Below are positions 2,958-58,884 of a stretch of DNA of 63,083 bases, piece by piece. The stretch covers positions 1 through 63,083 of IMG/VR virus record IMGVR_UViG_3300024302_000009. One strand, 5' to 3'. The notes beneath the pieces were generated by a model. That model worked only from the letters and a program-made list of their open reading frames with translations, made no database searches and was not told the origin of the DNA. Positions within the stretch are counted from its first letter, which is position 1. The number at the start of each line of letters is the position of its first letter. A program made the translations under genes and the position numbers. The DNA comes from a virus. Lineage: Duplodnaviria > Caudoviricetes.

Positions 2958-2979
2958 GCAATTTGTTACAAAATAGTAC

Positions 2980-3007
2980 TTGACAAAACCCTGAGAGAAC
3001 CTATAAT
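2980..3007 (+). promoter_or_regulatory. Class II promoter TTGACA-AAACCCTGAGAGAACC-TATAAT
   Basis: Perfect hexamers with the conserved 16-bp spacer. No ORF downstream. Confidence 0.85.
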
Positions 3008-4098
3008 AGTACTTAGTACCCCACCGGGTTATATACCACGGGGGTCCCGATTTCCTCCTTAAGTATATTACTTAGTTTTCCCCTTTATATGTTCTCTAGT
3101 CCTTTCAAAGAACCACCTAAAATAAAAACTATGATTTCCCCCCGCTATAAGACCACTATACATCTGTAGGAAGACATAGAGTATACGCCTTTATGGCACT
3201 GCTGTATCCCCCACCCCATTAAGCCTTTAGGGCACCCTCTTTGTATGGGGCTTTAATGAGGTAGACACTTATTATTTGTATAATTATGTTCACCTCAATA
3301 CAATTAAACATATAAGACCCCCCGTGGCCCCTGCCCCCTCTCCCTATAATAGTACGACCACACTATTTCCCCGTGTATTACCTGACCGTAACTCCCGCTT
3401 GCCCTGCAATATAACTCATTAGTGTACTAACGATACACTCAATACTAGCATATCACAAACTATTACAACATGTTACCAATCAATTACCATGCCAACTAAT
3501 TCACCTGTTGCATTAATACCACATGTCAAGCACATAATGTATATTAGCATTATCACATATACGGTCTGAACTGTACCAGTATGGCACAATGTGTATCATT
3601 AAGGTATGCACTCACTGCATGGCTGCATCACAATGGCACACCTGTATCACATTGGTACGGTCCTGTATGCCCTGACGTTGCCCTGTAAGGGCCTTTGGCT
3701 CGTTTGGTACCCGTTGGTAGCCAGCAAATTGGATGGCTTGTGTGGTCATCCTCATGCCACCACGCTTATATTAGCTTTCTCTAATTTACGGTCATATTCA
3801 CTTTTGCTAATATACGGTCCGGGTTGTGTTACTGGTAACAATACAACCCCTTCGCTCTGGGCTGTTGAACGAGCCGTAAATCCCAATTAGGTTGTATTAG
3901 CATTACCTAATGCAACTACGGTCTGGCGGTTGTATCCCAAATAGTAATGCTCGTTTTTAAGCCTTTTCTTAAGGTGCCTTAAGGTTTTCAAACGTCTGTA
4001 ATCAGGGGCCAAAACGTGTCACGCAATGTCATGGAATACCTTGTATCCTGAATTACTGCCCTGAATTGTTGTTTAGTTTCAATAGGTTATTTTAGCGT

Positions 4099-5244: not shown

Positions 5245-5405
5245 GTCCAAAATTTCCTTACGGTCACGGTCATAAAAGTAAAGGAAAAGAAAAGAAATGC
5301 AAAAGTAATAGTAAAAGAGGACTTACGGTCCAGAAAAGAAGTAAAGAAATAGGCGGCAAAGTAGTGTCAGAAAAGTATTACTGTGCATACATATGGTAGT
5401 ATGAC

Positions 5406-5434
5406 TTGACATAAGCAACTACTTGTAGTAGTAT
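5406..5434 (+). promoter_or_regulatory. Class I early promoter TTGACATAAG...TAGTAT
   Basis: 17-bp spacer, followed by the AGGGACA leader shared with other copies. Confidence 0.75.
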
Positions 5435-5464
5435 ATAGGGACAGTCAGGAAAGAGGAGCGAGAC

Positions 5465-7961: not shown

Positions 7962-8239
7962 TGGTTAACCTAGCCCGTCGTAAGACCAGAACTGTATCCG
8001 CAAATGGTCGGGAGGAGAGTGATGACTGGACACCTGTCTACCTTGATGTGCCCCATGAGGAGGCTGTAGAGGTATTCACCAAGGCTCTCGGCTTGCTGCA
8101 TGACATTGAGTTTGTGCGTAACAACTACAAGAAGGAGAAAATGGCTGACCTTATATTCGATGTAGGTGTGCACATTGATCGTGTGACTAACGAGAATGGT
8201 GGGCTTACCTTCATGAAACTTCAACGAGGTTTGACATAA
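7961..8239 (+). CDS. Hypothetical protein
   Basis: 92 aa, coupled to the upstream gene. Its stop lies in the next promoter. Confidence 0.65.
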   Translation: MVNLARRKTRTVSANGREESDDWTPVYLDVPHEEAVEVFTKALGLLHDIEFVRNNYKKEKMADLIFDVGVHIDRVTNENGGLTFMKLQRGLT

Positions 8240-8259
8240 GCGTTGTATTGTAGTATACT
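8231..8259 (+). promoter_or_regulatory. Class I early promoter TTGACATAAG...TATACT
   Basis: 17-bp spacer. Confidence 0.85.
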
Positions 8260-8282
8260 GTAGGGACAATAAGGAGAAAGAA

Positions 8283-8495
8283 ATGAAAATTACCCCGGTA
8301 ATTGGTATGGAAGTATATTACAACCATACTGGCATACATAAAAAAGTAGTTAGTATAGATGAAAGGGTGCGTTTCAGAGACTTACGTTATCCCCATCGCA
8401 CTTCAAATGCATTCCATAGCGAGTTTTCTACAAGTAATTACACCCTTATTAACAGAACCCCACGACAAAAGATAGAAGCAATGCTCATGAAATAG
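8283..8495 (+). CDS. KIExML-tail family member 1 (SH3/KOW-like)
   Basis: VIGMEV start motif, ends TPRQKIEAMLMK. Confidence 0.8.
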   Translation: MKITPVIGMEVYYNHTGIHKKVVSIDERVRFRDLRYPHRTSNAFHSEFSTSNYTLINRTPRQKIEAMLMK

Positions 8496-8504
8496 GAGAG
8501 AGAC

Positions 8505-8801
8505 ATGAAATATTTTGTAATCCTAGCAATACTGTTAGGTTATTCATCCCAAGCCAATGCACAAGTAGTGTGTGGCGATAGAAAAGTATACATAGAGACA
8601 CTCAAGGCCACGCACAAAGAGGTTACCACATCTATGGGCCTCAACAGCAACGGTAATGTAATTGAAGTGTTGGTGTCCCCTACTGGTAGCTGGACACTGT
8701 TGTCCACTTCCCCCAAGGGTAAATCTTGTGTGCTTATGTATGGTGAGGCGTGGATGAATATGCCTAAGCAAAATATTTCAGGCCCCTCAATAGAAGGATA
8801 A
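8505..8801 (+). CDS. Small secreted protein
   Basis: Signal peptide ending ANA, and a Cys pair (CGDR...KSCVL). Confidence 0.75.
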   Translation: MKYFVILAILLGYSSQANAQVVCGDRKVYIETLKATHKEVTTSMGLNSNGNVIEVLVSPTGSWTLLSTSPKGKSCVLMYGEAWMNMPKQNISGPSIEG

Positions 8802-8805
8802 GAGA

Positions 8806-8979
8806 ATGGCTATTTATGCAGCGGAAATTGAAAGTGTTGTAACGCTCCATATTACGTTGGAGAGTGACACAGTACCCACAAAAGCAGATGTGCTACGTGC
8901 TGCTGCTTCTGTTGATAACCATCAATACTCTGACATAAGCGATGAAAGAGTTACGTGCATTGAAAAAGAAGAAGGATAA
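8806..8979 (+). CDS. Small hypothetical protein (57 aa)
   Basis: Manual translation MAIYAAEIES...EKEEG, with RBS. Confidence 0.55.
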   Translation: MAIYAAEIESVVTLHITLESDTVPTKADVLRAAASVDNHQYSDISDERVTCIEKEEG

Positions 8980-8983
8980 GATA

Positions 8984-9223
8984 ATGTACTACATCACAAT
9001 CACACCAAAGAGTTTCTATCAGTTGGATGAAACTATCTCATACGCCACGGAGATTTTGGCAAAGGACTTAGGACCACATGTTGAGTGGGCTATTGAGTTC
9101 GCCAAGTCCCGTGATACTGAAGAGATACAGCATACTGTCTCTGTGCATAAGCATGTGGCTAAGGTACCACACATTGTTACGGTCGGAAATCTCACCATCG
9201 AAACTGGTTGTGAGGACTTCTAA
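8984..9223 (+). CDS. Hypothetical protein
   Basis: Start MYYITITPK after AAGGA. Confidence 0.65.
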   Translation: MYYITITPKSFYQLDETISYATEILAKDLGPHVEWAIEFAKSRDTEEIQHTVSVHKHVAKVPHIVTVGNLTIETGCEDF

Positions 9224-9438
9224 TGCGATGTAAGACAGGAGATAAGGTGTACGTGCACCCGGATAATGAATGGGGTGTGTACACTGAAGGGAAAGTGTAC
9301 ATTGTAGAGTATGTAGGGGACAATGGTAATTGTGACATAGTAGATGACAGGGGAACTGATCTGTGGATCAATAAGCGACATGTAACTCCTGCCCTCACAA
9401 CTCCCCGAGAGAAGATTGAGGCTATGCTATTGGCTTGA
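9223..9438 (+). CDS. KIExML-tail family member 2 (SH3/KOW-like)
   Basis: KTGDKV start motif, ends TPREKIEAMLLA. The stop codon lies inside TTGACA. Confidence 0.85.
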   Translation: MRCKTGDKVYVHPDNEWGVYTEGKVYIVEYVGDNGNCDIVDDRGTDLWINKRHVTPALTTPREKIEAMLLA

Positions 9439-9463
9439 CATAAGCCTTTAGGTAGTGTATACT
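9435..9463 (+). promoter_or_regulatory. Class I early promoter TTGACATAAG...TATACT
   Basis: 17-bp spacer. Confidence 0.85.
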
Positions 9464-9557
9464 GTAAGAACAATAAGGAGAGAGACATGAGCAGCTTAAC
9501 AGGTGACGAGTTCTGGGATAACATCTCAAAGCGTGATCCCTTCAAGGGGAGAAAGAA

Positions 9558-9797
9558 ATGAAGTACGAAGTAGGTGATCTGGTACTTATCCCTAAGGATG
9601 TAACAGAGGAGTATGAATACCATGCTTTCACAGAGGGTGATCCGTATGAGGTAACGGAAATCTATACGGCTAACAATGGCATTATGTACCTGTATGTGAA
9701 TGATGATAGTGGAGACAACTGGGAGCTTGGCTTCGACGAGGTTAACCCCTACGAAAAGACTGCCCGACAGAAGATCGAAGCTATGCTACTCGCTTGA
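9558..9797 (+). CDS. KIExML-tail family member 3 (SH3/KOW-like, acidic)
   Basis: YEVGDLV start motif, ends TARQKIEAMLLA. The stop codon lies inside TTGACA. Confidence 0.85.
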   Translation: MKYEVGDLVLIPKDVTEEYEYHAFTEGDPYEVTEIYTANNGIMYLYVNDDSGDNWELGFDEVNPYEKTARQKIEAMLLA

Positions 9798-9822
9798 CAT
9801 AAGAAGCTGGTTAGTGTATAAT
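9794..9822 (+). promoter_or_regulatory. Class I promoter TTGACATAAG...TATAAT, driving the tRNA-like array
   Basis: Perfect hexamers, 17-bp spacer, 26 nt upstream of the first tRNA-like element. Confidence 0.9.
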
Positions 9823-9848
9823 ACTTGAACAATAAGGAAAGACATTAT

Positions 9849-9926
9849 GTTCCGTTCGTCTAGATGGTCTAGGACGCTGGTAGCTTGCTACTTGAAACGC
9901 TGGTTCAAATCCAGCACGGAACCCCA
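9849..9926 (+). tRNA. tRNA-Glu-like RNA 1 with non-canonical anticodon arm
   Basis: Acceptor GTTCCGT/ACGGAAC, D arm GTCT..AGGAC, T arm GCTGG-TTCAAAT-CCAGC, encoded CCA. The anticodon region folds as GTAG-CTTG-CTAC with no 7-nt loop. Confidence 0.85.
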
Positions 9927-9928
9927 AT

Positions 9929-10043
9929 ATAGCCACTCGTCTAAGGGTAAAGACACTGGGTGGAGGGTGTACGCTTCTATAGGGCCACTGCACGCTTGTA
10001 TAACACACAGAGATATCTGGTTCAACTCCAGAAGGTTATTCCA
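9929..10043 (+). tRNA. tRNA-like RNA 2 with ~55-nt extended anticodon arm
   Basis: Acceptor ATAGCC/GGTTAT (weaker), D arm GTCT..AGAC, T arm TCTGG-TTCAACT-CCAGA, CCA end. Confidence 0.7.
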
Positions 10044-10048
10044 ATTAT

Positions 10049-10127
10049 GTTTCCATCGTCTAGTTGGTTAGGACGCTCATCTGTAAAACGGAGAGAAACA
10101 CTGGTTCAAGTCCAGTTGGAAACCCCA
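10049..10127 (+). tRNA. tRNA-Glu-like RNA 3 with distorted anticodon arm
   Basis: Acceptor GTTTCCA/TGGAAAC, T arm ACTGG-TTCAAGT-CCAGT, CCA. The arm CTCATCTGTAAAACGGAGAG is not a 5-bp stem plus 7-nt loop. Confidence 0.85.
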
Positions 10128-10129
10128 AT

Positions 10130-10223
10130 GTTCCTGTCGTCTAGATGGTCTAGGACGCTGATGAGATTGCCTCAATGTTGGTCCTTATCAGAAACACTGG
10201 TTCAAATCCAGTCAGGAACCCCA
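10130..10223 (+). tRNA. tRNA-Glu-like RNA 4 with elongated anticodon arm
   Basis: Acceptor GTTCCTG/CAGGAAC, T arm ACTGG-TTCAAAT-CCAGT, CCA. An 8-bp CTGATGAG/CTTATCAG stem encloses 18 nt. Confidence 0.85.
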
Positions 10224-10247
10224 ATTATGCTAGCAAAGGAGTAGCTC

Positions 10248-10454
10248 ATGTCATCTGGTAAACAACAACAATACAAATGGAATGTTCCAGCAAAAAGGAT
10301 TTACGTCACAGAGGCACGTGCTATAGGCAAGCAGTACCAGCCATGGGACAAGCTGCCGGACATGGATAAGGATTATTATAGGGCCTGTGCACAGCGCAAC
10401 GCCCAATACAAGATTGCGCAATCAGCGCATGAGGTTGTTGGTAACCTCAAGTAA
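10248..10454 (+). CDS. Hypothetical protein
   Basis: 68 aa with AAGGAG RBS, immediately after the tRNA-like array. Confidence 0.7.
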   Translation: MSSGKQQQYKWNVPAKRIYVTEARAIGKQYQPWDKLPDMDKDYYRACAQRNAQYKIAQSAHEVVGNLK

Positions 10455-10486
10455 GCCAACTTAACGCTCAACATAGGGAGTACTCC

Positions 10487-10771
10487 ATGAGCAATAACTT
10501 TATCAACGTGAGTAAGGGTAGTAAGAGTAATCATGTCCAGCGTAAGGATGTGAAGTTTGGCGAACTGTTTCGCGCCAAAGGCAAAGAGATGGATGGTGCT
10601 ACATACGCCCATATGGGTGTGCGTACTGACCCTCCTACCTCCGGCCCTGAGGCATGGCAGTCGATCAACATCGACTCTGGTGAGGCAGCGTCTTCCCCTA
10701 ATGGGGATAAGGGCGTAGTCATCGTGGGTGGTTTCACTATTGAAGCTGCTATCCACGAAGACTTCTCTTGA
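10487..10771 (+). CDS. Hypothetical protein
   Basis: 94 aa, GGGAG RBS, followed by a terminator. Confidence 0.75.
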   Translation: MSNNFINVSKGSKSNHVQRKDVKFGELFRAKGKEMDGATYAHMGVRTDPPTSGPEAWQSINIDSGEAASSPNGDKGVVIVGGFTIEAAIHEDFS

Positions 10772-10787
10772 TTAGCTGAAAGGCACA

Positions 10788-10815
10788 GGAGGGTGAAAGT
10801 CCCTCCACTTTCTTT
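10788..10815 (+). terminator. Rho-independent terminator
   Basis: GGAGGG-TGAAAGT-CCCTCC followed by ACTTTCTTT. Confidence 0.75.
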
Positions 10816-10972
10816 AAACTAAGTAGGGTATTGTGATACAGCATATATTTACATTATTGGAATTTGTTAATTGGATGGAAATTAATCCATCATTGGTGTA
10901 CGGTGAGGACTACATATACCTTGCTGTAGTTGACACTAAAACTATATATGTAATCTACTGAAGGAGAAAGAC

Positions 10973-12634
10973 ATGCGCGGATACTTTACCAACTCAACTG
11001 GGGCCAAGACTAAGGTCCAACTGCGTGAGCTGATTACTGGTTGGTCAGAGGATGCAGACACAGGCGAAAAGGAGTTTGCTGAGCATTACGATAAGTTCTA
11101 CAGTGATGAGGGTATCCTTACTGCTGCTCGGTTGATGCGCCACTTTAGTGAGAGGGCAGTCAGGTTAACTGGTGCTATTGCTAATCACTGTGGTTATGCA
11201 GAGAAACACACCTACCTTGAGTGGGGTGAAGGTGTCCCAATGATGCCGTTGTCCTACGTCGTGGTCAACAAGGGTGTTGTTTCGGTCAGAGTACATGAGG
11301 AGATTAAAATCCCTGTGCCTAGTGCCAATAACACTCTCCGCAACGTGTGGTGGTGCTCTGGTACAGATAACCTGAATATCATGGCTACCATCATTGAGGC
11401 TGACAAAGGTAACCCCCGCAACAAGAAGTGGGAGACACCTGCTCGCGCTATCGCTAACATGAAGCGAACCAAAGATTACACTATGGCTAAGTTCATGAAC
11501 AAGTTTACCCTAGTGGGTAATATGTATACTGCATCACAAATGCGTGATGTAGCAGACAACATCGCGGAGGAGTTCCTTCCTGTAGAGGTCAAGGAAGCTC
11601 TAACGCTACAAGACTGGATTGATATGTACGAGCTGAGTAAGCAGTCTTGTATGGTGTCACGTAGTGAGCACGCTGGTCAGTGGAGTGGTGACTTCCTCAG
11701 TCAAGTACAGAAGGGCGTACCTGTTGAAAAGGTGATGCACCCTGTCGTGTGGTACTTCTACAATCCTGATGTACGGGGCTTTTATGTACGAAAGAGAGAT
11801 AGTGTCACCACACGTTGTATTGTCATCAACGATGATGTATTCAACTACAAGATGTACTCCTCCGGTGAGGTAGATGGTCGTGCCCTGCGTGCATACTTTC
11901 AAGAGCAGGGGTGGGAGCAGATGGAAGAAGATGACATGGTTGAATGCGGTACTGCATCCTTCACTATACCAGCATATAAAAAGGATAACGGAGAAAAGGT
12001 CTGTCCTTTCCCCTACGTTGACTCCATTAATATGTACTGGAATGTGGAATACCTTGAAGATACTGATGAGTACAGGTGGTCCCAAGCAATGGAAGACACA
12101 CGCCCTGTACCTAAGGTACGCAGCCAAACCTATGCAGGGTTCATAACCCACAATCATATCACTGGTGCACAGTGTGTGCGTTGTGGCGGGGATTGTGGTA
12201 GGTACGCTGTGCTAACTAACGATAACTCCAACTACTGCTGTGATGAGTGTGCAGAGAATGACGGGTATGGTCGTGCAAAACGGTCAGACCACTCAACTAT
12301 CTGGATAGCTCGGGAAATGGCTTTCCTTGATGATGTTCATGGTGATATGTTCACCAACAGAGAAGCCTGTATCTCTTGTGGCGGTTTACCTCACTACAAG
12401 GGGCACACCTATGAGACGGAAGAAGAATACCCGTTGACTGTTCACGGTTACCAGAACATCACTCACGGTGACATGGCAATGACAATCACGCGGAGCACCT
12501 ATAGGTTCCTAACAGAAAAAGGCCAAATAAAAGAAGGTGTACTCACTCTCGGCAAGGCAATCGCCCCTCCCAACATCAATGTAACACGGGGCATGAACAG
12601 ATTTAATCGTGCAACAAGTCAATTTGAAAAGTAA
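10973..12634 (+). CDS. Large hypothetical protein with SCM and FPYVD motifs and a C-terminal Cys-rich (Zn-binding) region
   Basis: 553 aa, AAGGAG RBS, with CVRC, CCDEC and CISC clusters. Confidence 0.8.
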   Translation: MRGYFTNSTGAKTKVQLRELITGWSEDADTGEKEFAEHYDKFYSDEGILTAARLMRHFSERAVRLTGAIANHCGYAEKHTYLEWGEGVPMMPLSYVVVNKGVVSVRVHEEIKIPVPSANNTLRNVWWCSGTDNLNIMATIIEADKGNPRNKKWETPARAIANMKRTKDYTMAKFMNKFTLVGNMYTASQMRDVADNIAEEFLPVEVKEALTLQDWIDMYELSKQSCMVSRSEHAGQWSGDFLSQVQKGVPVEKVMHPVVWYFYNPDVRGFYVRKRDSVTTRCIVINDDVFNYKMYSSGEVDGRALRAYFQEQGWEQMEEDDMVECGTASFTIPAYKKDNGEKVCPFPYVDSINMYWNVEYLEDTDEYRWSQAMEDTRPVPKVRSQTYAGFITHNHITGAQCVRCGGDCGRYAVLTNDNSNYCCDECAENDGYGRAKRSDHSTIWIAREMAFLDDVHGDMFTNREACISCGGLPHYKGHTYETEEEYPLTVHGYQNITHGDMAMTITRSTYRFLTEKGQIKEGVLTLGKAIAPPNINVTRGMNRFNRATSQFEK

Positions 12635-12643
12635 GGTGGAATA

Positions 12644-14287
12644 ATGTCAAAAGGACCAATCAATAAGAAAGTGGTGACTAATCTTCCTGTCAAGGTTGAT
12701 CCCCACAAACGAGTTAAGAAGGGGGACATTGATCCTGTACTTCATGCTCTCCTTCGTCTGGCTACACCTATGGGGTCAGAGAAGGTCATTGTGGGTATCA
12801 TCAATGCTGTCTGTGCTAAACTATCTATTGAGACTACTCTCGATGAGAAGGGTAATCTACGTGCGGTTGTGGGAGAGGGGTCCAAGACTATCTTTAGTTC
12901 CCATATGGACACTGTGCATGACGCTTTTGGTGCATTACGTCTGTATCAATACACGGGGGACAAGAAGAAGGGGATCATCTTTGCTAAGCAGAACAACAAG
13001 AAATGTGTGCTTGGTGCTGATGACAAGGTGGGTGTGTGGCTTATGCTCAAGCTTATGGAGGCTGGTACACCGGGGCTGTACATCTTCCATATGGGGGAGG
13101 AGCAAGGTCGCGTAGGCTCTAAGTATATCGCTGCCTCTACACCTGAGATATTGGAAGGGTACGAGCGTGCTATTGCGTTTGATAGGGCAGGATACTTGGA
13201 CATTGTGGACACACAAATATCCGGTGAATGTTGCTCTGATACGTTTGTAGAGGCTCTGTCAACTCAACTAGACGCTGGTCTGGATGACAAGTACCCTGAT
13301 AGGGCTACTACCTCAGGCTTTACTGGGGCTACAGGTTCCTATACGGACACCGCCTCTTACATGAAACTCATCCCTGAATGTACCAATATCTCTGTGGGCT
13401 ATGACAACCAGCACACATCTGAGGAGATATTCGATTGGCCGTGGCTCAACGAGACGCTGCTGCCTATCCTGCTCAAAGTTAAGTGGGAAGACCTTCCAAC
13501 GGTCAGAGATCACACGGCAGTTCCTGTCTACACTAATAGCTACCGGAGTGGTGGTTATGGGAATTATGGTGGCTACAGCGGCTATGGCATGGGCGCAGAC
13601 CCTTGGTATGAGGATGATGACTTCTGGAAGGGCAATAGCCAGAACGACACTATCCGCAATGTGTCTTTGTATGAGAAGGATATCCCACGTACATATGACT
13701 CCACGGCTACATGGGTACTAGGGGAGGATTTACCCACTAACATCTACATGGCTACACGTATCATTGAGAAATGGACGTATAAGAAGGGAGATATCCTTGT
13801 TGATGAGGTCAAGACAGCTAACAAGACCATTGAAGAACTCAAGGACTTGGTGAACACTGCATACTATCTGTTCTCTAACATTGAGAGCTTGAAGATACTT
13901 GAGGATGGGGATGACAGGGCTAAGATGGTTCAAGGGGATATTGACGACTGGTATCAGGATATGTACACTACTGGTGTGTATGCAGGAGAGCTTGTGGATG
14001 ATGATAGCGAGGAACCTGCGGAGGAAAAAGATGAGCCGGGGCGTCCACCGGGACCAGCAGACAACATGACCTTTGATAGTAACCTGTTTAAGCTGACACA
14101 AGCGAATGAGGAGGCTACAGGAGGATACAATGAGATCACCATTGTTAACAGTGCTGGTGTCAAATACTCTCACTCTGCCTTGAAAGAAAAACGCAAGGGG
14201 GACACTCTGTACTACAACATGAGTGGTTATCGTCTGCCTTATATGTTCTACACCATCAAAGGTGATGAGAATTTCCTGAAAGGTTAG
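12644..14287 (+). CDS. M28/M20-clan Zn metallopeptidase with long acidic C-terminal extension
   Basis: SHMDTVH, LGADDK, GEEQG, FDR, YTD and NISVGYDNQHT motifs. Confidence 0.85.
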   Translation: MSKGPINKKVVTNLPVKVDPHKRVKKGDIDPVLHALLRLATPMGSEKVIVGIINAVCAKLSIETTLDEKGNLRAVVGEGSKTIFSSHMDTVHDAFGALRLYQYTGDKKKGIIFAKQNNKKCVLGADDKVGVWLMLKLMEAGTPGLYIFHMGEEQGRVGSKYIAASTPEILEGYERAIAFDRAGYLDIVDTQISGECCSDTFVEALSTQLDAGLDDKYPDRATTSGFTGATGSYTDTASYMKLIPECTNISVGYDNQHTSEEIFDWPWLNETLLPILLKVKWEDLPTVRDHTAVPVYTNSYRSGGYGNYGGYSGYGMGADPWYEDDDFWKGNSQNDTIRNVSLYEKDIPRTYDSTATWVLGEDLPTNIYMATRIIEKWTYKKGDILVDEVKTANKTIEELKDLVNTAYYLFSNIESLKILEDGDDRAKMVQGDIDDWYQDMYTTGVYAGELVDDDSEEPAEEKDEPGRPPGPADNMTFDSNLFKLTQANEEATGGYNEITIVNSAGVKYSHSALKEKRKGDTLYYNMSGYRLPYMFYTIKGDENFLKG

Positions 14288-14291
14288 TGAT

Positions 14292-14585
14292 ATGGAAAGA
14301 GATGTTAGACTAGGTGATAAGGTTAGGTGCTGGACAGATACCTCCTCAGTGCGAATAGGTACTGTGTGTCGCTTAACTGTCGCTGGCTGCGACCTTAAGG
14401 CTCAGGGCTATGACTTCATCATGAGTGGTGTGGAGAATAACAGAGGGCACCCCCTAAACCACGATGAAAGAGATATTTATGATTTGCCCTACGGGGATGA
14501 CTACTGGTATGGGGCGTTTAAAGACTGTGATGCACCAATTAAACTGACAGCTAGACAAAAGATTGAAAGGATGTTACATGCTTAA
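14292..14585 (+). CDS. KIExML-tail family member 4
   Basis: RLGDKV start motif, ends TARQKIERMLHA. The tail overlaps the GluRS start codon. Confidence 0.85.
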   Translation: MERDVRLGDKVRCWTDTSSVRIGTVCRLTVAGCDLKAQGYDFIMSGVENNRGHPLNHDERDIYDLPYGDDYWYGAFKDCDAPIKLTARQKIERMLHA

Positions 14586-15387
14586 CACACGTATTGCTCC
14601 ATCACCTACAGGTGACATGCACCTTGGAACAGCACGCACTGCATACTTTAACTGGCTTGCTGCACGGGCCACCGGAGGTAAATTCATTCTACGGATTGAT
14701 GATACCGACTTGGAACGCAGCAAGCCAGAACACACTGAAGTAATCCTTGAGACAATGGAATGGCTCGGGCTGGACTATGATGAAATCCATTACCAGAGTA
14801 AGCGTCAAGATAGGTACGAAGATATTGTGCGTATGTTTAAACATAGTGATAAAGGGTTTATTGATGATGGGTGTTTGCGACTGACTGCGCCCTTTGAGGA
14901 GGACAATCATCTAGTGATGATGAAATCAGACGGCTCCCCTACATATCACTTTGCCTCTGTGCTGGATGATATTGACATGGATACTAACTACATCATTCGT
15001 GGCAATGATCATGAACTCAACCTTCCTAAACACCAGCACATCCATAACCAAATTGTAGGTAATCTAGGGCCAGCGTTCCCTGACGTACAGCATGTAAGCC
15101 TTATCACCAAGGGCGGCAAGAAGATGTCCAAGCGTGATGATGCTGCATCTATGCTGTGGTATCGTGACCAAGGGTATAGTCCTGAGGCTGTGCTAAACTT
15201 CATGTTACGGTTGGGATGGTCACCAGATCAGGATGACAAGTCCAACGCTATCATCACAAGAGACAAGGCTGTAGAGATGTTCTTCGATGGGGGACACTTT
15301 ATCAAGGCTAAGCTGTCCGGCTATGACCAGAACAAGCTGGATTGGTTCAACAAGAAGTACAAGGCTATGGAGAGGATGGCGGCATGA
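14578..15387 (+). CDS. Truncated glutamyl-tRNA synthetase (catalytic and stem-contact domains only, no anticodon-binding domain)
   Basis: RIAPSPTG, HLGT (HIGH), LRIDDTD, YQSKR, PTYHFASVLDD, IRGNDH, KMSKR and LGWS motifs. Ends at 269 aa just after KLDWFNKKY. Confidence 0.92.
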   Translation: MLNTRIAPSPTGDMHLGTARTAYFNWLAARATGGKFILRIDDTDLERSKPEHTEVILETMEWLGLDYDEIHYQSKRQDRYEDIVRMFKHSDKGFIDDGCLRLTAPFEEDNHLVMMKSDGSPTYHFASVLDDIDMDTNYIIRGNDHELNLPKHQHIHNQIVGNLGPAFPDVQHVSLITKGGKKMSKRDDAASMLWYRDQGYSPEAVLNFMLRLGWSPDQDDKSNAIITRDKAVEMFFDGGHFIKAKLSGYDQNKLDWFNKKYKAMERMAA

Positions 15388-15611
15388 CGTATTGTTTTCA
15401 ACCGGGGGACAGAGTTAGGGTCAAGTACAACAATGATAGCAGCGCAGCAGATCACCCCGCAGGTAGTATCAGAATAGTAGATAAGTCGGAAACAACAAGA
15501 AGCGGGCTTACCACCTTTAGGGGGAATTACCATTATGGTATATGGGCTGAAAAATTAGAGTTGTGTGTCCCCACCGCCAGAGAGAAAATAGAAAGGATGC
15601 TCCATGAGTGA
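15384..15611 (+). CDS. KIExML-tail family member 5
   Basis: FQPGDRV start motif, ends TAREKIERMLHE. ATGA coupling to the GluRS stop. Confidence 0.85.
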   Translation: MTYCFQPGDRVRVKYNNDSSAADHPAGSIRIVDKSETTRSGLTTFRGNYHYGIWAEKLELCVPTAREKIERMLHE

Positions 15612-15849
15612 AATTAACGGAGGAAACAACTTCAAGGTAGGGGATATGGTGTATATTCCGGGCCATAGTATATTTGGGGAGCCTAGCAAAGTCCTAGAGA
15701 TAGGGGAACCTACGTTTCGTGACGCTGACTACACTTATGTCATGGCCCTTGAAGGTATTTATGACAATACCCGCACTATTGTACCTAATGGGTTTCACCT
15801 GTATGCTATGACACCTCGTCAGAAGATAGAGAGGATGCTCCATGCTTAA
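15604..15849 (+). CDS. KIExML-tail family member 6
   Basis: NGGNNFKVGDMV start motif, ends TPRQKIERMLHA. Confidence 0.85.
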   Translation: MSEINGGNNFKVGDMVYIPGHSIFGEPSKVLEIGEPTFRDADYTYVMALEGIYDNTRTIVPNGFHLYAMTPRQKIERMLHA

Positions 15850-16087
15850 CGGAGGAAACAAATTCAAAGTTGGTGATATAGTGTCGTATGCACCCAAACT
15901 TGACGACGATTATGATAAAAATCAAAACTTAAAAGTAGTTAGTGTGCAAGAGTTAGGTTTTCATCAGGATAGCTGTACGTATACAATATGCCTAGAAGGG
16001 ATGGGAGGTACAAAGTATCTACCTAGCTATTACAAACTAGAACCTATGACAGCTCGACAGAAGATTGAGGCCATGTTACATGAGTGA
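15842..16087 (+). CDS. KIExML-tail family member 7
   Basis: NGGNKFKVGDIV start motif, ends TARQKIEAMLHE. Confidence 0.85.
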   Translation: MLNGGNKFKVGDIVSYAPKLDDDYDKNQNLKVVSVQELGFHQDSCTYTICLEGMGGTKYLPSYYKLEPMTARQKIEAMLHE

Positions 16088-16895
16088 TATCAAGGAATAT
16101 ATAGACTCCATCGACCTTGACATGGACGTAGTACACAGGACGGATTGCCCTGAATGTGGTGGTGGTAACACCTTTACGGTCACCAAGACGCTCGATGGAA
16201 CAGTATGGAACTGCTATTCAGCGACCTGTAGTGTAGTAGGCGGTACTTCGGATGTGCGCTTAAGCAGTGAGGAGCTAGAGATGTTCCTCCAGAGAGGGGA
16301 TGTCAGGACCCCTTCTCTGTTCCAGATACCTGATATATGGGTACCAGCACGACAATCCAAGAAGACTATGGACTACCTTAAGGTGAATAACTGTCTGGAC
16401 GCCTATGAGGAAGACAGAGCAGACATCATGTATGACCCTGTATTGGACCGCCATGTCTTTGTAAGCTGGTCTGAGGGCATCTGTAAGGGTGCGGTAGGTA
16501 GACTAGCTGGAGGCTCCAGTGCCCCTAAGTGGTGGGTCTACAGCCTAGCAAACACCCATCCATTAGTTATCCCCCAATATGGGGTAGCTGGCTTCCCCGA
16601 GTATCCTAATCCCAAGGTAGGGGTGCTGGTGGAGGATGCAGCGTCTGCTTGTGCTGTGAGTTGTGAAGCTGACGGAATTGCATTGATGGGTACAAATCTG
16701 AACCCCTACTATGTACCTGTCATAAAAGAGTACGATAGTATTATTATTGCCCTAGACCCTGATGCGCACAACAAGGGCATTGACATGCAGCTAGAGGTAT
16801 CCATGTACACCAATGCGAAGGTTGCTACCATCACGGATGACCTTAAATACATGCAACCTGATCAAATTAGATGGGAAATAGGAGATTTAGTATGA
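16080..16895 (+). CDS. DNA primase (Zn finger + TOPRIM)
   Basis: CPECG...CYSATC Zn finger, and LVEDAASA, ALMGT and IALDPDA TOPRIM motifs. Confidence 0.9.
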   Translation: MSDIKEYIDSIDLDMDVVHRTDCPECGGGNTFTVTKTLDGTVWNCYSATCSVVGGTSDVRLSSEELEMFLQRGDVRTPSLFQIPDIWVPARQSKKTMDYLKVNNCLDAYEEDRADIMYDPVLDRHVFVSWSEGICKGAVGRLAGGSSAPKWWVYSLANTHPLVIPQYGVAGFPEYPNPKVGVLVEDAASACAVSCEADGIALMGTNLNPYYVPVIKEYDSIIIALDPDAHNKGIDMQLEVSMYTNAKVATITDDLKYMQPDQIRWEIGDLV

Positions 16896-17122
16896 TTAAC
16901 AGACATAGATTTAAGGTGGGGGACAAGGTGAAGCGTAAAAAGCACGATTACCCTGCTGGTTACTACAATGGCACATACACAGTGTGTGAGACATTCGGTT
17001 CACATGGTATCAGGTTAATTAATAATACCAATAAGCGCAAACTATATAACGGATACTACGCATGGGATGTGACACAAGTATTGTCCGCCCGAGAGAAAAT
17101 AGAAAGGATGCTACATGCCTAG
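16892..17122 (+). CDS. KIExML-tail family member 8
   Basis: FKVGDKV start motif, ends SAREKIERMLHA. Confidence 0.85.
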   Translation: MINRHRFKVGDKVKRKKHDYPAGYYNGTYTVCETFGSHGIRLINNTNKRKLYNGYYAWDVTQVLSAREKIERMLHA

Positions 17123-17282
17123 ATGTTGTGATGAGGCCAACAATGAGTTGGTGGAGAAGATTTGTGATGATTTACGTGTGTTATTGTTTGATGAAGAACA
17201 GATTAACACTATTGAGATATGGCATATTCAAAAGAAGTACACCAAGGTAATCTCTGATACAACACCCAAGCGGCCATTCTGA
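17115..17282 (+). CDS. Small hypothetical protein (55 aa)
   Basis: MPRCCDEANNE... starts within the tail of family member 8, at the same position as after members 4-7. Confidence 0.55.
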   Translation: MPRCCDEANNELVEKICDDLRVLLFDEEQINTIEIWHIQKKYTKVISDTTPKRPF

Positions 17283-17356
17283 TGCAAGGTGATGAGGTAT
17301 TCGTCTTGTGTCTCCTAGCCTTCATGCTACTAGTTGTAGTATATGGCATGGGATAG
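17282..17356 (+). CDS. Single-TM micropeptide (24 aa)
   Basis: MQGDEVFVLCLLAFMLLVVVYGMG, TGATG coupling. Confidence 0.45.
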   Translation: MQGDEVFVLCLLAFMLLVVVYGMG

Positions 17357-17410
17357 TGTGACATTCCTGCAACACTTATAAACTATTTTAGGGTGTTTGT
17401 ACGATTTGTC

Positions 17411-17438
17411 TTGACAAAACCCTGAGGGAACCTATAAT
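17411..17438 (+). promoter_or_regulatory. Class II promoter TTGACA-AAACCCTGAGGGAACC-TATAAT
   Basis: Conserved 16-bp spacer, upstream of the helicase/polymerase operon. Confidence 0.85.
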
Positions 17439-17496
17439 AGAACTTGTACCCCATGAGGTTTAACACCCAGTGGATTTCAGATTTAAGGAGGATTAG

Positions 17497-17625
17497 ATGT
17501 TTACACTAGAAGCTAAAGAGATAATACGAGGCATAAGGTGGATATGTTTCACCTTGGCAGGAGCTATCTTCTTATGGGTAACCATAGCGGTAGTAATAAG
17601 CCTGATCAGTAGGATGATAACATGA
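17497..17625 (+). CDS. Single-TM small protein (42 aa)
   Basis: AAGGAGG RBS, hydrophobic C-terminal half. Confidence 0.6.
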   Translation: MFTLEAKEIIRGIRWICFTLAGAIFLWVTIAVVISLISRMIT

Positions 17626-24057: not shown

Positions 24058-24161
24058 GTTTTGTATTTGGTATTGCAGTGGTGATAATATTGTTAATGGT
24101 AATTACAGGGTGACAAATATGTCACACTTTTAAATTAATTTCACTTTTATGTCGATTTTAC

Positions 24162-24189
24162 TTGACAAAACCCTGAGAGAACCTATAAT
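24162..24189 (+). promoter_or_regulatory. Class II promoter TTGACA-AAACCCTGAGAGAACC-TATAAT
   Basis: Identical core to the 2980 copy, upstream of the SSB-like gene. Confidence 0.88.
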
Positions 24190-24221
24190 AGTATATGAGG
24201 CTAATGACAAAAGGAGCAAAA

Positions 24222-56136: not shown

Positions 56137-58884
56137 TTAATATCCAAACACAGGGTCTGCCATTTGTGGGGCATTCGCTGTGGAACTGAAGTATTCAGCT
56201 TCAACTATGTATCTTGCAGGTACTGCAAGTCGGCTAGTAACTCCGTAACGTAGAGCATCGTACAGGTGATCCTCTGGGAACTTGGTGTCTACATCTTCTG
56301 GGTTGTTCTTATCCAGAGGAAGCATTGGTAAGATACGAAGAAGATTATCACAAGCTGTGCTAATTCGTAATCTTGGTAACTCGGTTACTGGATCAATAGA
56401 GAACATCTTGTGGAGGGCCACTTTACCATTTACACGGCTGCCGGGACCCTTGTCAGCTTTAATCCACCTGACACCTAAATTGATCATCTCTTCAGCTATA
56501 GAAGGACCTCTCTGTCCTCTCATAGCCCATGTCTCATTATCCAAGATACCTAGTATGCCCGGAGGCTCTTCGGCTTCAATCTCATGGATTTTCTCTGCTA
56601 GAGCAACTCCATCCAGACCCTTCTGGTATAACTCTCTGTAAGCGTACACTGTACCATCGTAATCAACTGCAAACCAGATAACTGCGGCAGGAGCCGAATA
56701 ACCATAGTCACAAGCTCTAAACCTCGGCCAGTCCGCAGGAGGTACAAACTGTTCTACTGCGTGTATTGACTTATCGAACTCTGGAAAGGCACTGGAGTCT
56801 GATATGTCCCAGTCACCCTCTAAGAGCCTCTTACGCTGTACTGTGGACATAGACGCCAAGTTAGCCATGTACTCTGGAGACTGCATCAAGTAAGGGTTGT
56901 CAGTAAGCCTTGCAGGTATGAACCTGCGTCTGATAGCTTTCTTATTCCTTAGCTCTTCTGGTACAAACTCTGAGTCTGGGAACCTTAGTATCTCTCCCGT
57001 TTCAATGTCTCTGCCCCAGAAAGGCTCTCCCCAAGGAGCAGGATCAATGAACATCTTCTTAACCCACCATGCCCCAATCTGTCCGGGATTAGTGGTAGCA
57101 CGCATGTATGGTGTAATCTCTGGATCAGTAGTACGTAAACGAGAACGAAGTGTGTCCCATACGTAAGGTGTGGCAAACAGTGTTAACTCATCCACACCAA
57201 TCCAAGAGTACGATTGTCCAATGTAACGGCCTACGTCAGCATCTGCATCACAGAAACCAAACAGTAGAGTTGCACCTGATGGGAACTTCCATCTGTTTTC
57301 CCCTTTGTTATACTTAGCGCCGGGGAAGGCTTTAGGGTACAGCTCCATGGACAGATCAATCAGTTCCATAAGCTCAGGCATTGACTTACGAATAAGTAGC
57401 GCCCTGTGTGCTGGCCTGTGCATGTACCTCAGAGGGTCCATGAGCATCCCGTAGGAATTATGCGTTACTATATAATTGTCCGTTATATATAATCCATCTT
57501 CTGATGCTAGTGTGACACATTTAGCCTCTTCACGGTGACTATAACTTATAGAAACTATTCTGTTTTTTAAGTGTTTCTTTACTTTACACCTTGCCTTCTT
57601 CCTACTTAAATTAAATATGGAAGCAGCGTCTCTAAGCCGTATGTAAACAGTGTACGCTGTGTACCCTTCGTGAACTACGTTACCACATCTATAATGAGTA
57701 CTCTTCCACGTTATAGTAGCTGTTCCCCCTAAACCTCTAACTAGCTCTGCTACGTCTTCAGCCAGTGTAAAGCTTATTGAGGTGTAATACACCTTACTAT
57801 CTTTGGATGCGTAGCCATCTGTATCCATAAGCCCTTGTAATAAACATATTCTATCTTGTGTATTCGCTTTTTTATAGTTTTCAGGTATAAACTTTGTTAG
57901 AGAATTTGTACCTAGTAGCTTTAAATCCCGCAGAGCTTGTGTCTGTCCTAGCACACCCCACGCGTATTTACTTGATCTCTTAGTGACTACTACACCATCT
58001 TGGCGTATGCGATTTACAATCTCTTCATCAGCAGAGCTTAAACCTACAGAGTCTGTAGTTATACTGCCATCTCCGAGTAATGCACCTAATGTGTAAGGTG
58101 GCACTACAAGATTTGTAGACACTCCAAAATCAAACTGCTGTATTAAAGGAACTAACGCCCAGCGCGGTCGTTTTTTACTGTACTGCTTATCTGTATAATC
58201 TTGTAAACTTTTAGTGTCTCTAACCTTAGGTAATATAGAACTACTATTACCCGCAATAGTGTACTCCCACAAATGATCTCCTGTACATTCTACATTGGAG
58301 CCATCTTGAAATGTTACAAGATATATGTCTTGTGTTCCTTGTGGGTGTTCTTGTACAACCTTAGTGGTAGTTCCGTCTGGAGAATATACAATATCTCCTA
58401 CTCCCACCTCACCTATAGTTTTAAACCCTTCAGGAGTAAGTATTTTTGCGGATAATGGCTGTGCCTTGCCGCCACCAGCACTGCCTCCGTAGAGTATCTC
58501 TTTCTCAGGGGCAGCTAGGAAGTCTGTTTGAGGTCCCGGATTGGGTTGGAAGATGACTGTTCGGCCATCATCTAAAACATTCTGGAACGTCTGTCCTGCC
58601 GTGTCGATTGTGTCTTGGGTGATAACCTTTCCCTTTTTCTTAGGGGGATTGGTCATCACCCGGACAATCTCATTAGCAGCTTTAGCCTTGGCTTTTGCGG
58701 CTACCGCATTTTCCTCGGCCTTATCCTCTGCCTTTTGCTTACGTCTGGCTTTGGCTTCTTTTGCCCTGTGTGCCTTAGTGAGCTTAGCGTTTCTCTCTTT
58801 CTCAAGCTGCCTAGCTTTACGCTTGGCCTTTTCTGTTGAGGAGAGCTGATATCTACGCTTTGGCTTTGGAGTCTCGTCAGTCAT
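56137..58884 (-). CDS. terL: Terminase large subunit containing an intein
   Basis: PNPGPQ, YGGSAGGGK|S Walker A, IGVDEL Walker B, ATTNPG, DYGY and DHLYDALRY motifs. Confidence 0.93.
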   Translation of the reverse strand: MTDETPKPKRRYQLSSTEKAKRKARQLEKERNAKLTKAHRAKEAKARRKQKAEDKAEENAVAAKAKAKAANEIVRVMTNPPKKKGKVITQDTIDTAGQTFQNVLDDGRTVIFQPNPGPQTDFLAAPEKEILYGGSAGGGKAQPLSAKILTPEGFKTIGEVGVGDIVYSPDGTTTKVVQEHPQGTQDIYLVTFQDGSNVECTGDHLWEYTIAGNSSSILPKVRDTKSLQDYTDKQYSKKRPRWALVPLIQQFDFGVSTNLVVPPYTLGALLGDGSITTDSVGLSSADEEIVNRIRQDGVVVTKRSSKYAWGVLGQTQALRDLKLLGTNSLTKFIPENYKKANTQDRICLLQGLMDTDGYASKDSKVYYTSISFTLAEDVAELVRGLGGTATITWKSTHYRCGNVVHEGYTAYTVYIRLRDAASIFNLSRKKARCKVKKHLKNRIVSISYSHREEAKCVTLASEDGLYITDNYIVTHNSYGMLMDPLRYMHRPAHRALLIRKSMPELMELIDLSMELYPKAFPGAKYNKGENRWKFPSGATLLFGFCDADADVGRYIGQSYSWIGVDELTLFATPYVWDTLRSRLRTTDPEITPYMRATTNPGQIGAWWVKKMFIDPAPWGEPFWGRDIETGEILRFPDSEFVPEELRNKKAIRRRFIPARLTDNPYLMQSPEYMANLASMSTVQRKRLLEGDWDISDSSAFPEFDKSIHAVEQFVPPADWPRFRACDYGYSAPAAVIWFAVDYDGTVYAYRELYQKGLDGVALAEKIHEIEAEEPPGILGILDNETWAMRGQRGPSIAEEMINLGVRWIKADKGPGSRVNGKVALHKMFSIDPVTELPRLRISTACDNLLRILPMLPLDKNNPEDVDTKFPEDHLYDALRYGVTSRLAVPARYIVEAEYFSSTANAPQMADPVFGY
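57457..58464 (-). mobile_element. Class 3 intein with LAGLIDADG homing endonuclease (336 aa) in the TerL Walker A
   Basis: Starts AQPL and ends VTHN before Ser+1. TGDHLW (block B), KCVT (block F), LGALLGDGS and LQGLMDTDG. Confidence 0.9.

Follow-up and report, generated by a model that had tools for sequence, protein, structure and literature searches.

A near-invariant 12-residue C-terminal tail on eight diverged small proteins of an uncultivated marine podovirus

The window analyzed here is the whole stretch of 63,083 bases, derived from an uncultivated marine HMO-2011-type podovirus whose nearest relatives are also HMO-2011-type podoviruses. Eight mini-protein open reading frames (ORFs) of 70 to 97 amino acids (aa), m1 to m8, are located on the + strand at 8.2 to 17.1 kb, in a region of primase, helicase, and polymerase genes, and the structural genes occupy the opposite strand at 34 to 62 kb. 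All eight ORFs were found where a preliminary description of this DNA had placed them. By position, they flank a tRNA array (9849-10223), a GluRS-like gene, and a primase-like gene, as that description had also reported. The genes, with the 36-nt segments encoding their tails, are as follows.

8283..8495, + strand: m1, 70 aa, the most divergent member, with a VIGMEV head; basic, pI 10.1; tail TPRQKIEAMLMK, encoded at 8457-8492
9223..9438, + strand: m2, 71 aa; tail TPREKIEAMLLA, encoded at 9400-9435
9558..9797, + strand: m3, 79 aa; very acidic, pI 4.1; tail TARQKIEAMLLA, encoded at 9759-9794
14292..14585, + strand: m4, 97 aa; tail TARQKIERMLHA, encoded at 14547-14582
14578..15387, + strand: GluRS/GluQRS-like gene, 269 aa, catalytic domain only (Pfam tRNA-synt_1c, E 2e-58)
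15384..15611, + strand: m5, 75 aa; tail TAREKIERMLHE, encoded at 15573-15608
15604..15849, + strand: m6, 81 aa; tail TPRQKIERMLHA, encoded at 15811-15846
15842..16087, + strand: m7, 81 aa; tail TARQKIEAMLHE, encoded at 16049-16084
16080..16895, + strand: primase-like gene, 271 aa (PHROG 47 DNA primase, E 1e-7)
16892..17122, + strand: m8, 76 aa; basic, pI 9.9; tail SAREKIERMLHA, encoded at 17084-17119

Earlier starts were listed for m5 (TTG 15342) and m8 (ATG 16871). The starts used here, ATG 15384 and ATG 16892, each overlap the stop codon of the preceding gene as ATGA, and an AGGAG sits upstream of ATG 16892. Through such overlaps, the GluRS-like gene, which is also matched by the NCBIfam gltX and GluQRS models under their cutoffs, is coupled in translation to its neighbors m4 (upstream) and m5 (downstream), and the primase-like gene is coupled to m7 and m8 in the same way. 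A peptidase gene, a member of a PHROG family, ends 5 nt ahead of m4. The phage sequence represents real DNA, given that two seawater DNA runs from different studies, X3 and X4, contain contigs at least 99% identical to it. In addition, contigs of two RNA libraries contain pieces over m3, m4, m6/m7, and m8, which is not proof of transcription.

The feature uniting the eight products is a common 12-aa C-terminal tail, already recognized in the preliminary description and recovered here by two routes. A six-frame regular-expression scan of the 63,083 bases found the pattern (T/S)(P/A)R(Q/E)KIE(A/R)ML(H/L/M)(A/E/K)-stop exactly eight times, always on the + strand and with the stop two residues past ML, and no ninth copy in the whole genome. 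A profile built from the eight members retrieved the same eight from the genome (E 6e-30 to 2e-17), the next segment scoring an E value of 1.6. When the members are aligned, the invariant positions are M1, the G and V of an xVGDxV head, and, in the tail, R, K, I, E, M, and L; the head D is mostly kept.

To the preliminary description, conservation of the tail explained entirely at the DNA level was one outcome that would have spoken against a role of the peptide. The codon table of the eight segments points the other way, with a pS of 0.81 against a pN of 0.18 for the 12 codons, and 0.92 against 0.11 for the RxKIExM core. Mean pairwise identity is 0.47, nearly random, at third positions versus 0.86 at second positions, and the synonymous spread covers CGA, AGA, and CGT for R, ATA, ATT, and ATC for I, and CTC, CTA, and TTA for L. 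The tail is kept by selection on amino acids, not on DNA.

The same segments carry expression signals for what follows them, a point that the preliminary description had missed. In five of the eight copies, the last codons hold the Shine-Dalgarno sequence and the ATG of the next gene, giving an 8-nt overlap preceded by GAAAGGA, GAGAGGA, or GAGG. The E-R codons (GAAAGG) serve as the Shine-Dalgarno sequence, and the His codon (CAT+G) provides the ATG of the next gene, 8 nt ahead of the stop. Accordingly, His is found in all five overlapped tails and in none of the other three. In two further copies (m2 and m3), the Ala codon and stop (GCT TGA CA) form the -35 box TTGACA of a consensus promoter. 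The junctions and the three promoter-like sites, which score 11 to 12 of 12 consensus matches, are given below.

8231-8259, + strand: sigma-70-type promoter-like site directly ahead of m1
8505, + strand: start of the gene after m1, whose stop TAG runs into the AGGAG of this gene
9435-9463, + strand: sigma-70-type promoter-like site, 11/12 consensus, with the m2 stop TGA inside its TTGACA
9794-9822, + strand: sigma-70-type promoter-like site, 12/12 consensus, with the m3 stop TGA in its TTGACA, just before the tRNA array
14578, + strand: ATG of the GluRS-like gene, within the m4 tail His codon (8-nt overlap)
15604, + strand: ATG of m6, inside the m5 tail
15842, + strand: ATG of m7, inside the m6 tail
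16080, + strand: ATG of the primase-like gene, inside the m7 tail
17115, + strand: ATG of a 55-aa ORF, inside the m8 tail

The tail and promoter of m2 and m3 together make up an 84-nt repeat (D6) of 79% identity, and copies of a 59-nt repeat family (D4) occur at 5403, 8228, and 9432. The 3' end of the tail coding sequence has a second use, as the start region for translation of the following gene or as a promoter -35 box, which explains the alternation of A/R and H/L/M in the tail. The overlapping start signals place a partial constraint on the last five codons, such that protein function does not account for all of the conservation of the tail.

Taken to its extreme, this dual use would make coupling, a promoter, or a recombination site the sole cause of the conservation and the peptide a by-product. 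Such signals do fill the last five codons, and the m5 and m8 tails are identical at 31 of 36 nt despite unrelated cores, which hints at some exchange at the DNA level. However, synonymous sites are near saturation whereas replacement sites are not, the upstream T-x-R-x-K-I-E has no signal role and is invariant in the three copies without an overlapping start, and 8-nt overlaps without the tail peptide occur at three other + strand gene junctions. An explanation by nucleic acid signals only can therefore be set aside as extremely improbable.

In contrast to the tail, the remainder of the proteins has diverged to the point that the cores are almost unrelated in sequence, as the preliminary description had stated. 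When the tail is removed, BLASTP detects 2 of the 28 pairs at E < 1e-3 (m2-m3 and m6-m7, the latter at E 5e-8), and the 13 of 28 pairs with any match at E ≤ 10 are mostly limited to the short VGD motif. Core pI spans 4.1 to 9.9.

The label SH3/KOW-like, assigned to the cores in the preliminary description, finds weak support on its SH3 side. In a Pfam scan of all eight members at E ≤ 1, no SH3, KOW, or other model reached its cutoff and KOW gave no match, the best SH3-type match being SH3_13 on m8 at 14.3 bits versus a cutoff of 41. Some support for an SH3-like class comes from profile and structure matches. The family profile retrieves 44 proteins at E ≤ 0.001, 36 of them from outside the window, and matches multi-repeat proteins with Mind-bomb SH3 repeats. 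In a Pfam scan of nine of these 36, SH3_15 was found far over its cutoff in P0009 (234.9 bits) and P0011 (208.8 bits), marginally over it in P0015 (26 versus 24), and under it in P0021 and P0044. Against the PDB, the profile matches HERC2, a ubiquitin-protein ligase, at E 0.0047. AF2 models of m1 and m7, both of low confidence (pLDDT of 54.7 and 61.2), show four strands and a helix. Foldseek searches of the PDB gave no match at E ≤ 0.001, and a VIA structural comparison placed Tudor, chromo, and SH3 domains best at Z 6.3, a Z of about 6 lying in the range that the tool itself calls common. The cores may thus be small beta-barrels of the SH3/Tudor type with a helix at the C-terminal end. They resemble the SH3, Tudor, and chromo barrels, including the Mind bomb/HERC2 repeat (SH3_15), in size, in the xVGDxV first strand, and in predicted strands, but differ in that no member reaches a Pfam cutoff and that SH3_15 proteins lack the tail. 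Phage small beta-barrel proteins of 60 to 100 aa among the BFVD models are alike in predicted fold (Foldseek E 0.01 to 0.1), but none matches at E ≤ 0.001 and no sequence relationship was found; none of them is known to make up a multicopy family with a constant tail.

The tail is predicted to be helical in both low-confidence AF2 models, with the helix of m7 covering residues 71 to 80. On a helical wheel, the invariant K5, M9, I6, L10, R3, and E7 form one contiguous arc and the variable positions 1, 4, 8, 11, and 12 the other. Where the helix sits against the barrel, like the fold itself, is taken from these AF2 models and shares their low confidence. One-sided conservation is equally expected if the helix packs on its own barrel, beside the conserved first strand.

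The helix could accordingly be a structural cap lying over the open face of the barrel in its own protein, required by the fold, with no common partner and with eight separate jobs for the eight proteins. In chromo-domain or Sso7d-type barrels, a helix packs over the open side in this manner, and both termini of SH3-type barrels lie close together. The xVGDxV head and the tail are the sole conserved parts of the family, and chromo and Tudor domains are among the top structural matches. The tail also begins in the way typical of helices (T/S cap, P/A, Q/E third) and contains an i/i+4 R-E pair, features that stabilize a helix as such. However, the exposed R, K, and E are invariant although the barrels, which keep G, V, and mostly D, differ so widely in pI. 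Moreover, a constraint from the fold only usually permits swaps among I, L, M, and V, of which the eight saturated paralogues show none. We regard the cap as a real but rather unlikely explanation.

Outside this phage, the tail was absent from all proteins searched, comprising 1.84 billion representatives, IMG/VR, JGI metagenomes, and the nearest phage relatives. In outside proteins matched by the family profile, the best stretch never passes profile position 72 of 78. Thirteen viral loci with homologues of the GluRS-like enzyme (43 to 50% identity) contain neither a family member nor a repeated tail. Across these searches, the mini-protein family is an orphan confined to one phage lineage.

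This distribution weakens two partners proposed in the preliminary description, the GluRS-like enzyme and the peptidase, because homologues of the former occur without the family and the latter belongs to a PHROG family while the tail is in no outside protein. It bears equally on the idea that the tail is a modification site, with the GluRS-like enzyme acting on the invariant Lys or Glu and the M20-like hydrolase taking the mark off again. Loose parallels are the lysylation of EF-P by a truncated LysRS paralogue and the LysW carrier proteins. The coupling of m4 and m5 to the GluRS-like gene and the peptidase end just before m4 fit this idea, as does the weak resemblance of the peptidase to M20 enzymes, with [LysW]-lysine hydrolase among them (E 0.012; E 1.5e-5 but far under the curated cutoff). 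However, with a tRNA array adjoining, a tRNA target is the simpler reading of the GluRS-like enzyme, and together with the distribution this leaves a modification site very improbable. The weak likeness of the peptidase to LysK prompted a comparison with LysW carriers, which use an invariant acidic C-terminal residue as the attachment point on a zinc-ribbon core. The phage proteins do not follow this type, since only two of the eight end in Glu and their alignment has no conserved Cys/His pattern.

The tail endings (LMK, LLA, LLA, LHA, LHE, LHA, LHE, and LHA) also bear on a tag for degradation or timing, through which a host protease (Lon or ClpXP) would clear eight early proteins on one schedule. 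A partly hydrophobic stretch at the C terminus of early proteins would suit such a role, and the two copies ending in LLA resemble nonpolar C-terminal tags. The terminal degron put forward in the preliminary description is nonetheless weakened, as conservation is lowest at the last two residues, three of the eight tails end in a charged E or K, and the invariant block is set back from the end by 3 to 10 residues, a poor fit with reading of a free C terminus. Tags of the ssrA type have conserved nonpolar last two or three residues, unlike the variable endings found here. A degradation tag is therefore improbable.

The reading that we favor, still tentatively, is that of a shared interaction helix on diversified barrels. 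The eight genes would be old paralogues in the early/replication region, each encoding a putative SH3/Tudor-class small beta-barrel with the conserved first strand xVGDxV at its start and, as its closing element, an amphipathic helix that is constant and N-capped (T/S cap and P/A ahead of RxKIExML). The barrels would have drifted or diversified until most pairs became unrecognizable and their charge ranged from strongly acidic to strongly basic. Selection at the protein level has held the helix near invariant. We infer that the helix is a docking surface and that a partner for it exists. The conserved face, an I-M-L stripe with R, K, and E on its flanks, would act as a common protein-protein interaction element tying all members to one partner, either a host hub or other family members, and the variable barrels would offer differing second surfaces. 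The last five tail codons have been co-opted as expression signals. An adaptor library, in which the barrels would each bind a separate host or phage target and the helix would connect all of them to one hub (protease, RNA polymerase, or replisome), is conceivable, if doubtful.

Short C-terminal docking peptides on otherwise unrelated proteins are known from SspB, which tethers to ClpX, and from the T4 proteins binding the gp45 clamp. The phage tail is alike as a short C-terminal common handle but differs in motif, and, unlike the eight phage proteins, those proteins are not related as paralogues. Poxvirus ankyrin-repeat proteins comprise many paralogues with a variable target part and a constant C-terminal PRANC/F-box-like module docking on one host machine. 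Both systems thus join a variable part to a constant C-terminal module across paralogues of one viral genome, although the poxvirus one belongs to a eukaryotic virus and uses a domain of about 40 to 50 aa with an SCF ligase as partner, compared with a 12-aa helix in the phage, and there is no homology. The T4 internal proteins, a small polymorphic set encoded among head genes and bearing an N-terminal, cleaved capsid-targeting sequence, are similar in having one constant short address peptide. Capsid targeting of this type does not match the phage family, whose peptide is C-terminal and whose genes lie among replication genes behind sigma-70-type promoters.

Early small phage proteins are the main reservoir of host takeover and antidefense functions, and most are without an assigned function. 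The family described here amounts to a natural experiment, with eight copies in one genome in which synonymous divergence is saturated, the barrels were free to change, and a 12-residue helix is frozen. Where the tail runs into the start signals of the following gene, it provides a compact example of dual coding, and this overlap accounts for which tail positions vary. Should the helix prove to be a common handle, it would be a ready-made bait for a hub attacked by this phage group, as well as a minimal portable docking tag. If the adaptor library is true, a single docking site would redirect or neutralize many targets early in infection, and the family would stand as the counterpart, in a bacterial virus, of the poxvirus ankyrin/F-box families, with a far smaller module as its building block.

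Eight small open reading frames (ORFs), designated m1 to m8, end in the same 12-residue tail, (T/S)(P/A)R(Q/E)KIE(A/R)ML(H/L/M)(A/E/K), and all of them were found on the + strand:

8283-8495, +, mini-protein m1
9223-9438, +, mini-protein m2
9558-9797, +, mini-protein m3
14292-14585, +, mini-protein m4
15384-15611, +, mini-protein m5
15604-15849, +, mini-protein m6
15842-16087, +, mini-protein m7
16892-17122, +, mini-protein m8

In a six-frame scan of the entire window, the tail motif occurs exactly eight times, and a stop codon comes two residues after every occurrence. A profile built from the eight proteins finds no further member in the genome (the eight, E of 6e-30 to 2e-17; next segment, E of 1.6). 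ORF calls, scan, and profile together bear out in full the eight tail-sharing ORFs of the preliminary description, and m1 to m8 are a real orphan family of paralogues. Their alignment is invariant at the start Met, at G and V in the xVGDxV head strand, and at R, K, I, E, M, and L in the tail. The cores had been called almost unrelated, which agrees with BLASTP after removal of the 12 tail residues: only 2 of the 28 pairs are detected at E<1e-3 (m2-m3, 5e-4; m6-m7, 5e-8), and the remaining alignments mostly span just the 7- to 10-residue VGD motif. The pI of the cores ranges from 4.1 to 9.9, and the full-length proteins carry net charges between about -13 and +9.

Across the 36 nt encoding the tail, the mean pairwise identity is 0.71, 0.86, and 0.47 at the first, second, and third codon positions, respectively. 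Nei-Gojobori proportions equal 0.81 (pS) and 0.18 (pN) for the 12 tail codons and 0.92 and 0.11 for the RxKIExM segment, and codon choice varies for Arg (CGA/AGA/CGT), Ile (ATA/ATT/ATC), and Leu (CTC/CTA/TTA). Synonymous sites are thus near saturation; it follows that the paralogues are old and that purifying selection acts on the peptide itself. The preliminary description had proposed an adaptor library, in which each variable domain binds a different host target and the constant tail docks on one common partner, and had named DNA-level conservation as the observation that would count against it. The pS and pN values reveal no such conservation; the proposal survives this comparison, and the rest of it we infer.

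The tails of m5 and m8 (15573-15608 and 17084-17119) have 31 of 36 nt in common, with seven of nine same-residue codons identical and unrelated cores. Judging from the sequence, a tail segment may have been exchanged locally between copies in the past.

The 3' end of the tail-coding sequence is reused for expression signals, a point missed in the preliminary description. In m4, m5, m6, m7, and m8, the His codon and the following base (CAT G) form the ATG of the next gene, which in all five copies sits 8 nt before the end of the stop codon. Upstream of this ATG lies GAAAGGA or GAGAGGA, encoded by Glu-Arg codons, or GAGG in m7. The GluRS-like gene (with the ATG at 14578 as its true start), m6, m7, the primase gene, and a 55-aa ORF start inside tails in this way. 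His is present in 5/5 overlapped tails and 0/3 others, and Arg occupies the A/R position in 4/5 overlapped tails. In m2 and m3, the Ala-stop end (GCT TGA CA) makes the TTGACA of promoter-like sites (11/12 and 12/12), and tail plus promoter constitute an 84-nt repeat with 79% identity between the two copies. The m1 stop codon, TAG, runs on into the AGGAG of the next gene. What comes after each gene therefore largely accounts for the alternation seen at the variable positions of the tail. The 8-nt overlap geometry is not peculiar to the family, since three other + strand junctions in the genome show it as well. The T-x-R-x-K-I-E block has no signal role and is equally invariant in copies without an overlapping start. 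That nucleic acid signals alone explain the tail conservation has hardly any probability, as the pS and pN of the tail codons argue against it. Rfam matched a single tRNA in the region 8000-17600 and no RNA family over any tail.

Near-consensus sigma-70-type promoters form two families, which differ in their conserved spacers and leaders and lie within the repeat families D7/D8 and D4/D6:

2971-3009, promoter, repeats D7/D8
17402-17440, promoter, repeats D7/D8
24153-24191, promoter, repeats D7/D8
5403-5461, promoter, repeats D4/D6
8228-8286, promoter, repeats D4/D6
9432-9490, promoter, repeats D4/D6
9791-9842, promoter, repeats D4/D6

This arrangement suggests that the host RNA polymerase reads the entire left arm and that two regulatory classes exist. 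Behind the promoter at 9435-9463 lies a 24-codon ORF (9487-9561, +) with its own AAGGAG, which overlaps the m3 start as ATGA and may encode a leader peptide coupled to m3.

No family was matched at a credible score in Pfam, PHROGs, or PADLOC for any of the eight members or in NCBIfam for m3 and m7. The best Pfam matches fall far under the cut-offs, and the PHROG matches are to families of unknown function only, at E values of at least 4e-4. An exhaustive profile search of 1.84 billion representative proteins returned 44 at E<=0.001, including the eight of the window itself. The 36 outside proteins are long (247-3239 aa), with 3-24 matched stretches each, and of nine analysed with Pfam, two have Mind bomb SH3 repeats scoring well over the cut-off and three more have them weakly. 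In the PDB, the best match of the family profile is the ubiquitin-protein ligase HERC2 (E of 0.0047). Low-confidence AF2 models predict a helix at residues 60-69 of m1 (pLDDT, 54.7) and four strands with a helix at residues 71-80 of m7 (pLDDT, 61.2; pTM, 0.46). Foldseek found nothing at E<=0.001 in the PDB and BFVD, and the ESM Atlas held no match scoring at least 0.9. An aligner independent of Foldseek ranked Tudor, chromo, SH3, and KOW barrels at the top, with Z scores of 6.3-5.3, a level that the tool calls common. A small barrel of the SH3/Tudor class with a helix at its C-terminal end is likely but not established: the profile matches and the aligner point weakly to the class behind the earlier SH3/KOW-like label, and no curated model fits. 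The members would then be alike in fold to SH3/Tudor domains generally and to the numerous small uncharacterised beta-barrel proteins of phages.

The record is the complete window (63083 bases) and, by its large genes, belongs to a podovirus-type tailed phage. Replication and nucleotide-metabolism genes occupy the + strand to ~33.5 kb (primase, DnaB-like helicase, family A polymerase, Cas4-type nuclease, ribonucleotide reductase, and thymidylate synthase), and the structural genes lie past this point on the - strand. The major head protein shares 54% identity with that of Pelagibacter phage HTVC115P and 44% with that of Puniceispirillum phage HMO-2011, which makes the phage an uncultivated marine representative of the HMO-2011-type group. 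The phage is real and recurrent in seawater: four seawater DNA runs from different studies, one of which may be the source sample, contain 57-100% of the sampled words. Contigs from two of these runs (X3 and X4) are mostly >=99% identical to the window, with 3 differing letters in 9.5 kb. Contigs from two RNA libraries cover 9773-10002, 14470-14723, 15754-15904, 16878-17218, and 16972-17122, which does not in itself demonstrate transcription.

The ends of the record, 1-670 and 62414-63083, overlap by ~670 bases with a mean column identity of 91%; the flanks are identical and the middle (~170-440) only roughly two-thirds so. Such ends seem to reflect an assembly that is circularly closed or terminally redundant and that includes one hypervariable - strand gene segment in two allelic versions; the record is labelled "linear" and 80% complete by the source. 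The large terminase ORF (56137-58884, -; 915 aa) carries an inserted LAGLIDADG-type domain at residues 348-412 (Pfam E of 1.5e-9), by sequence probably an intein, and residues 98-370 give PHROG matches to primase/helicase-loader families.

Among 5.8 billion proteins, a word-indexed search retrieved nothing beyond the eight of the window itself. In the exhaustive profile search, no outside protein carries the tail, since no best matched stretch passes profile position 72 of 78. Scanning for the tail peptide yielded 26 chance stretches and no relatives in IMG/VR, and 596 stretches in JGI metagenomes, about chance level by a rough estimate, of which none was confirmed as a relative by tblastn with m7 alone, a query that could miss members with unrelated cores. 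A strict DNA pattern of tail plus stop has one match in IMG/VR, taken as chance because it is out of frame with any ORF of at least 30 aa. The primase led to no loci in IMG/VR or metagenomes. Five related virus records contain no family match; the capsid protein (63-44% identity) had led to four of them and the GluRS-like gene to the fifth. In the two complete genomes among the five (68 and 62 kb), re-examination of the ORF tails and with the HMM gave no match and no comparable repeated ORF end. Among INPHARED phages, neither a DNA match to 8000-17500 nor a tblastn match to m7 was found. The family is likewise absent from 13 viral loci with a GluRS-like homologue (43-50% identity), and no paper describing such a family was found in the portions of the full-text literature covered.

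The GluRS-like protein (14578-15387, +; 269 aa) consists of the catalytic domain only, and GluRS and GluQRS models match it below their cut-offs. Its gene lies 4.3 kb from the phage tRNA-Tyr(GTA). tRNAs with GUN anticodons are the queuosine family. Modification of tRNA seems a likelier role for the protein than aminoacylation. The tRNA-like array (9849-10225) contains four copies of a 36-nt T-arm-like repeat; ARAGORN predicts three genes (Thr-GGT, Tyr-GTA, and a third whose anticodon loop is odd) and Rfam accepts 10049-10124 alone. The remaining units may be degenerate or non-canonical. It is very improbable that the neighbouring GluRS-like and M20-like enzymes use the tail as a modification site. 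Homologues of the former are present in other viral contigs that lack the family, and the peptidase has a PHROG family, whereas no outside protein in the profile search carries the tail; moreover, the peptidase resembles M20 hydrolases such as [LysW]-lysine hydrolase only weakly.

Plotted as a helical wheel, the tail has K5, M9, I6, L10, R3, and E7, all invariant, on one continuous arc together with A/P2, and the variable positions 1, 4, 8, 11, and 12 on the opposite arc. The helix starts with T/S, then P/A, with Q/E three residues further on; such a start is a textbook helix cap. A hydrophobic stripe with invariant charged flanks, retained through saturated divergence on barrels having almost nothing in common, would be expected of a surface meeting the same partner in all eight proteins. 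We tentatively read the tail as a shared interaction helix, for a common partner or for mutual assembly. A purely structural cap, with the helix packing beside the conserved first strand, is somewhat unlikely. A degradation or timing tag is improbable, given that the extreme C terminus is the variable part and that three of the eight copies end charged. As for the partner of a shared interaction helix, the 553-aa protein (10973-12634, +), a candidate named in the preliminary description, is close to an orphan itself: 5.8 billion proteins yielded a single distant homologue (27% identity), and its distribution neither supports nor excludes this role. The protein has Cys-rich clusters and no match in Pfam, PHROG, NCBIfam, or the PDB. 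A complex prediction with two copies of m7 scored 0.00 ("no answer") without controls and has no bearing either way.

Variable domains joined to a constant short docking element, in numerous paralogues within a single virus, have precedents in the poxvirus ankyrin/PRANC proteins, the C-terminal peptide tethering SspB to ClpX, the T4 clamp-binding protein tails, and the N-terminal capsid-targeting sequence of the T4 internal proteins. All are alike in principle and none is homologous to m1 to m8. The tail lacks defining features of the T4 and degron models. The pattern is striking and clean, yet restricted to one uncultivated phage lineage.
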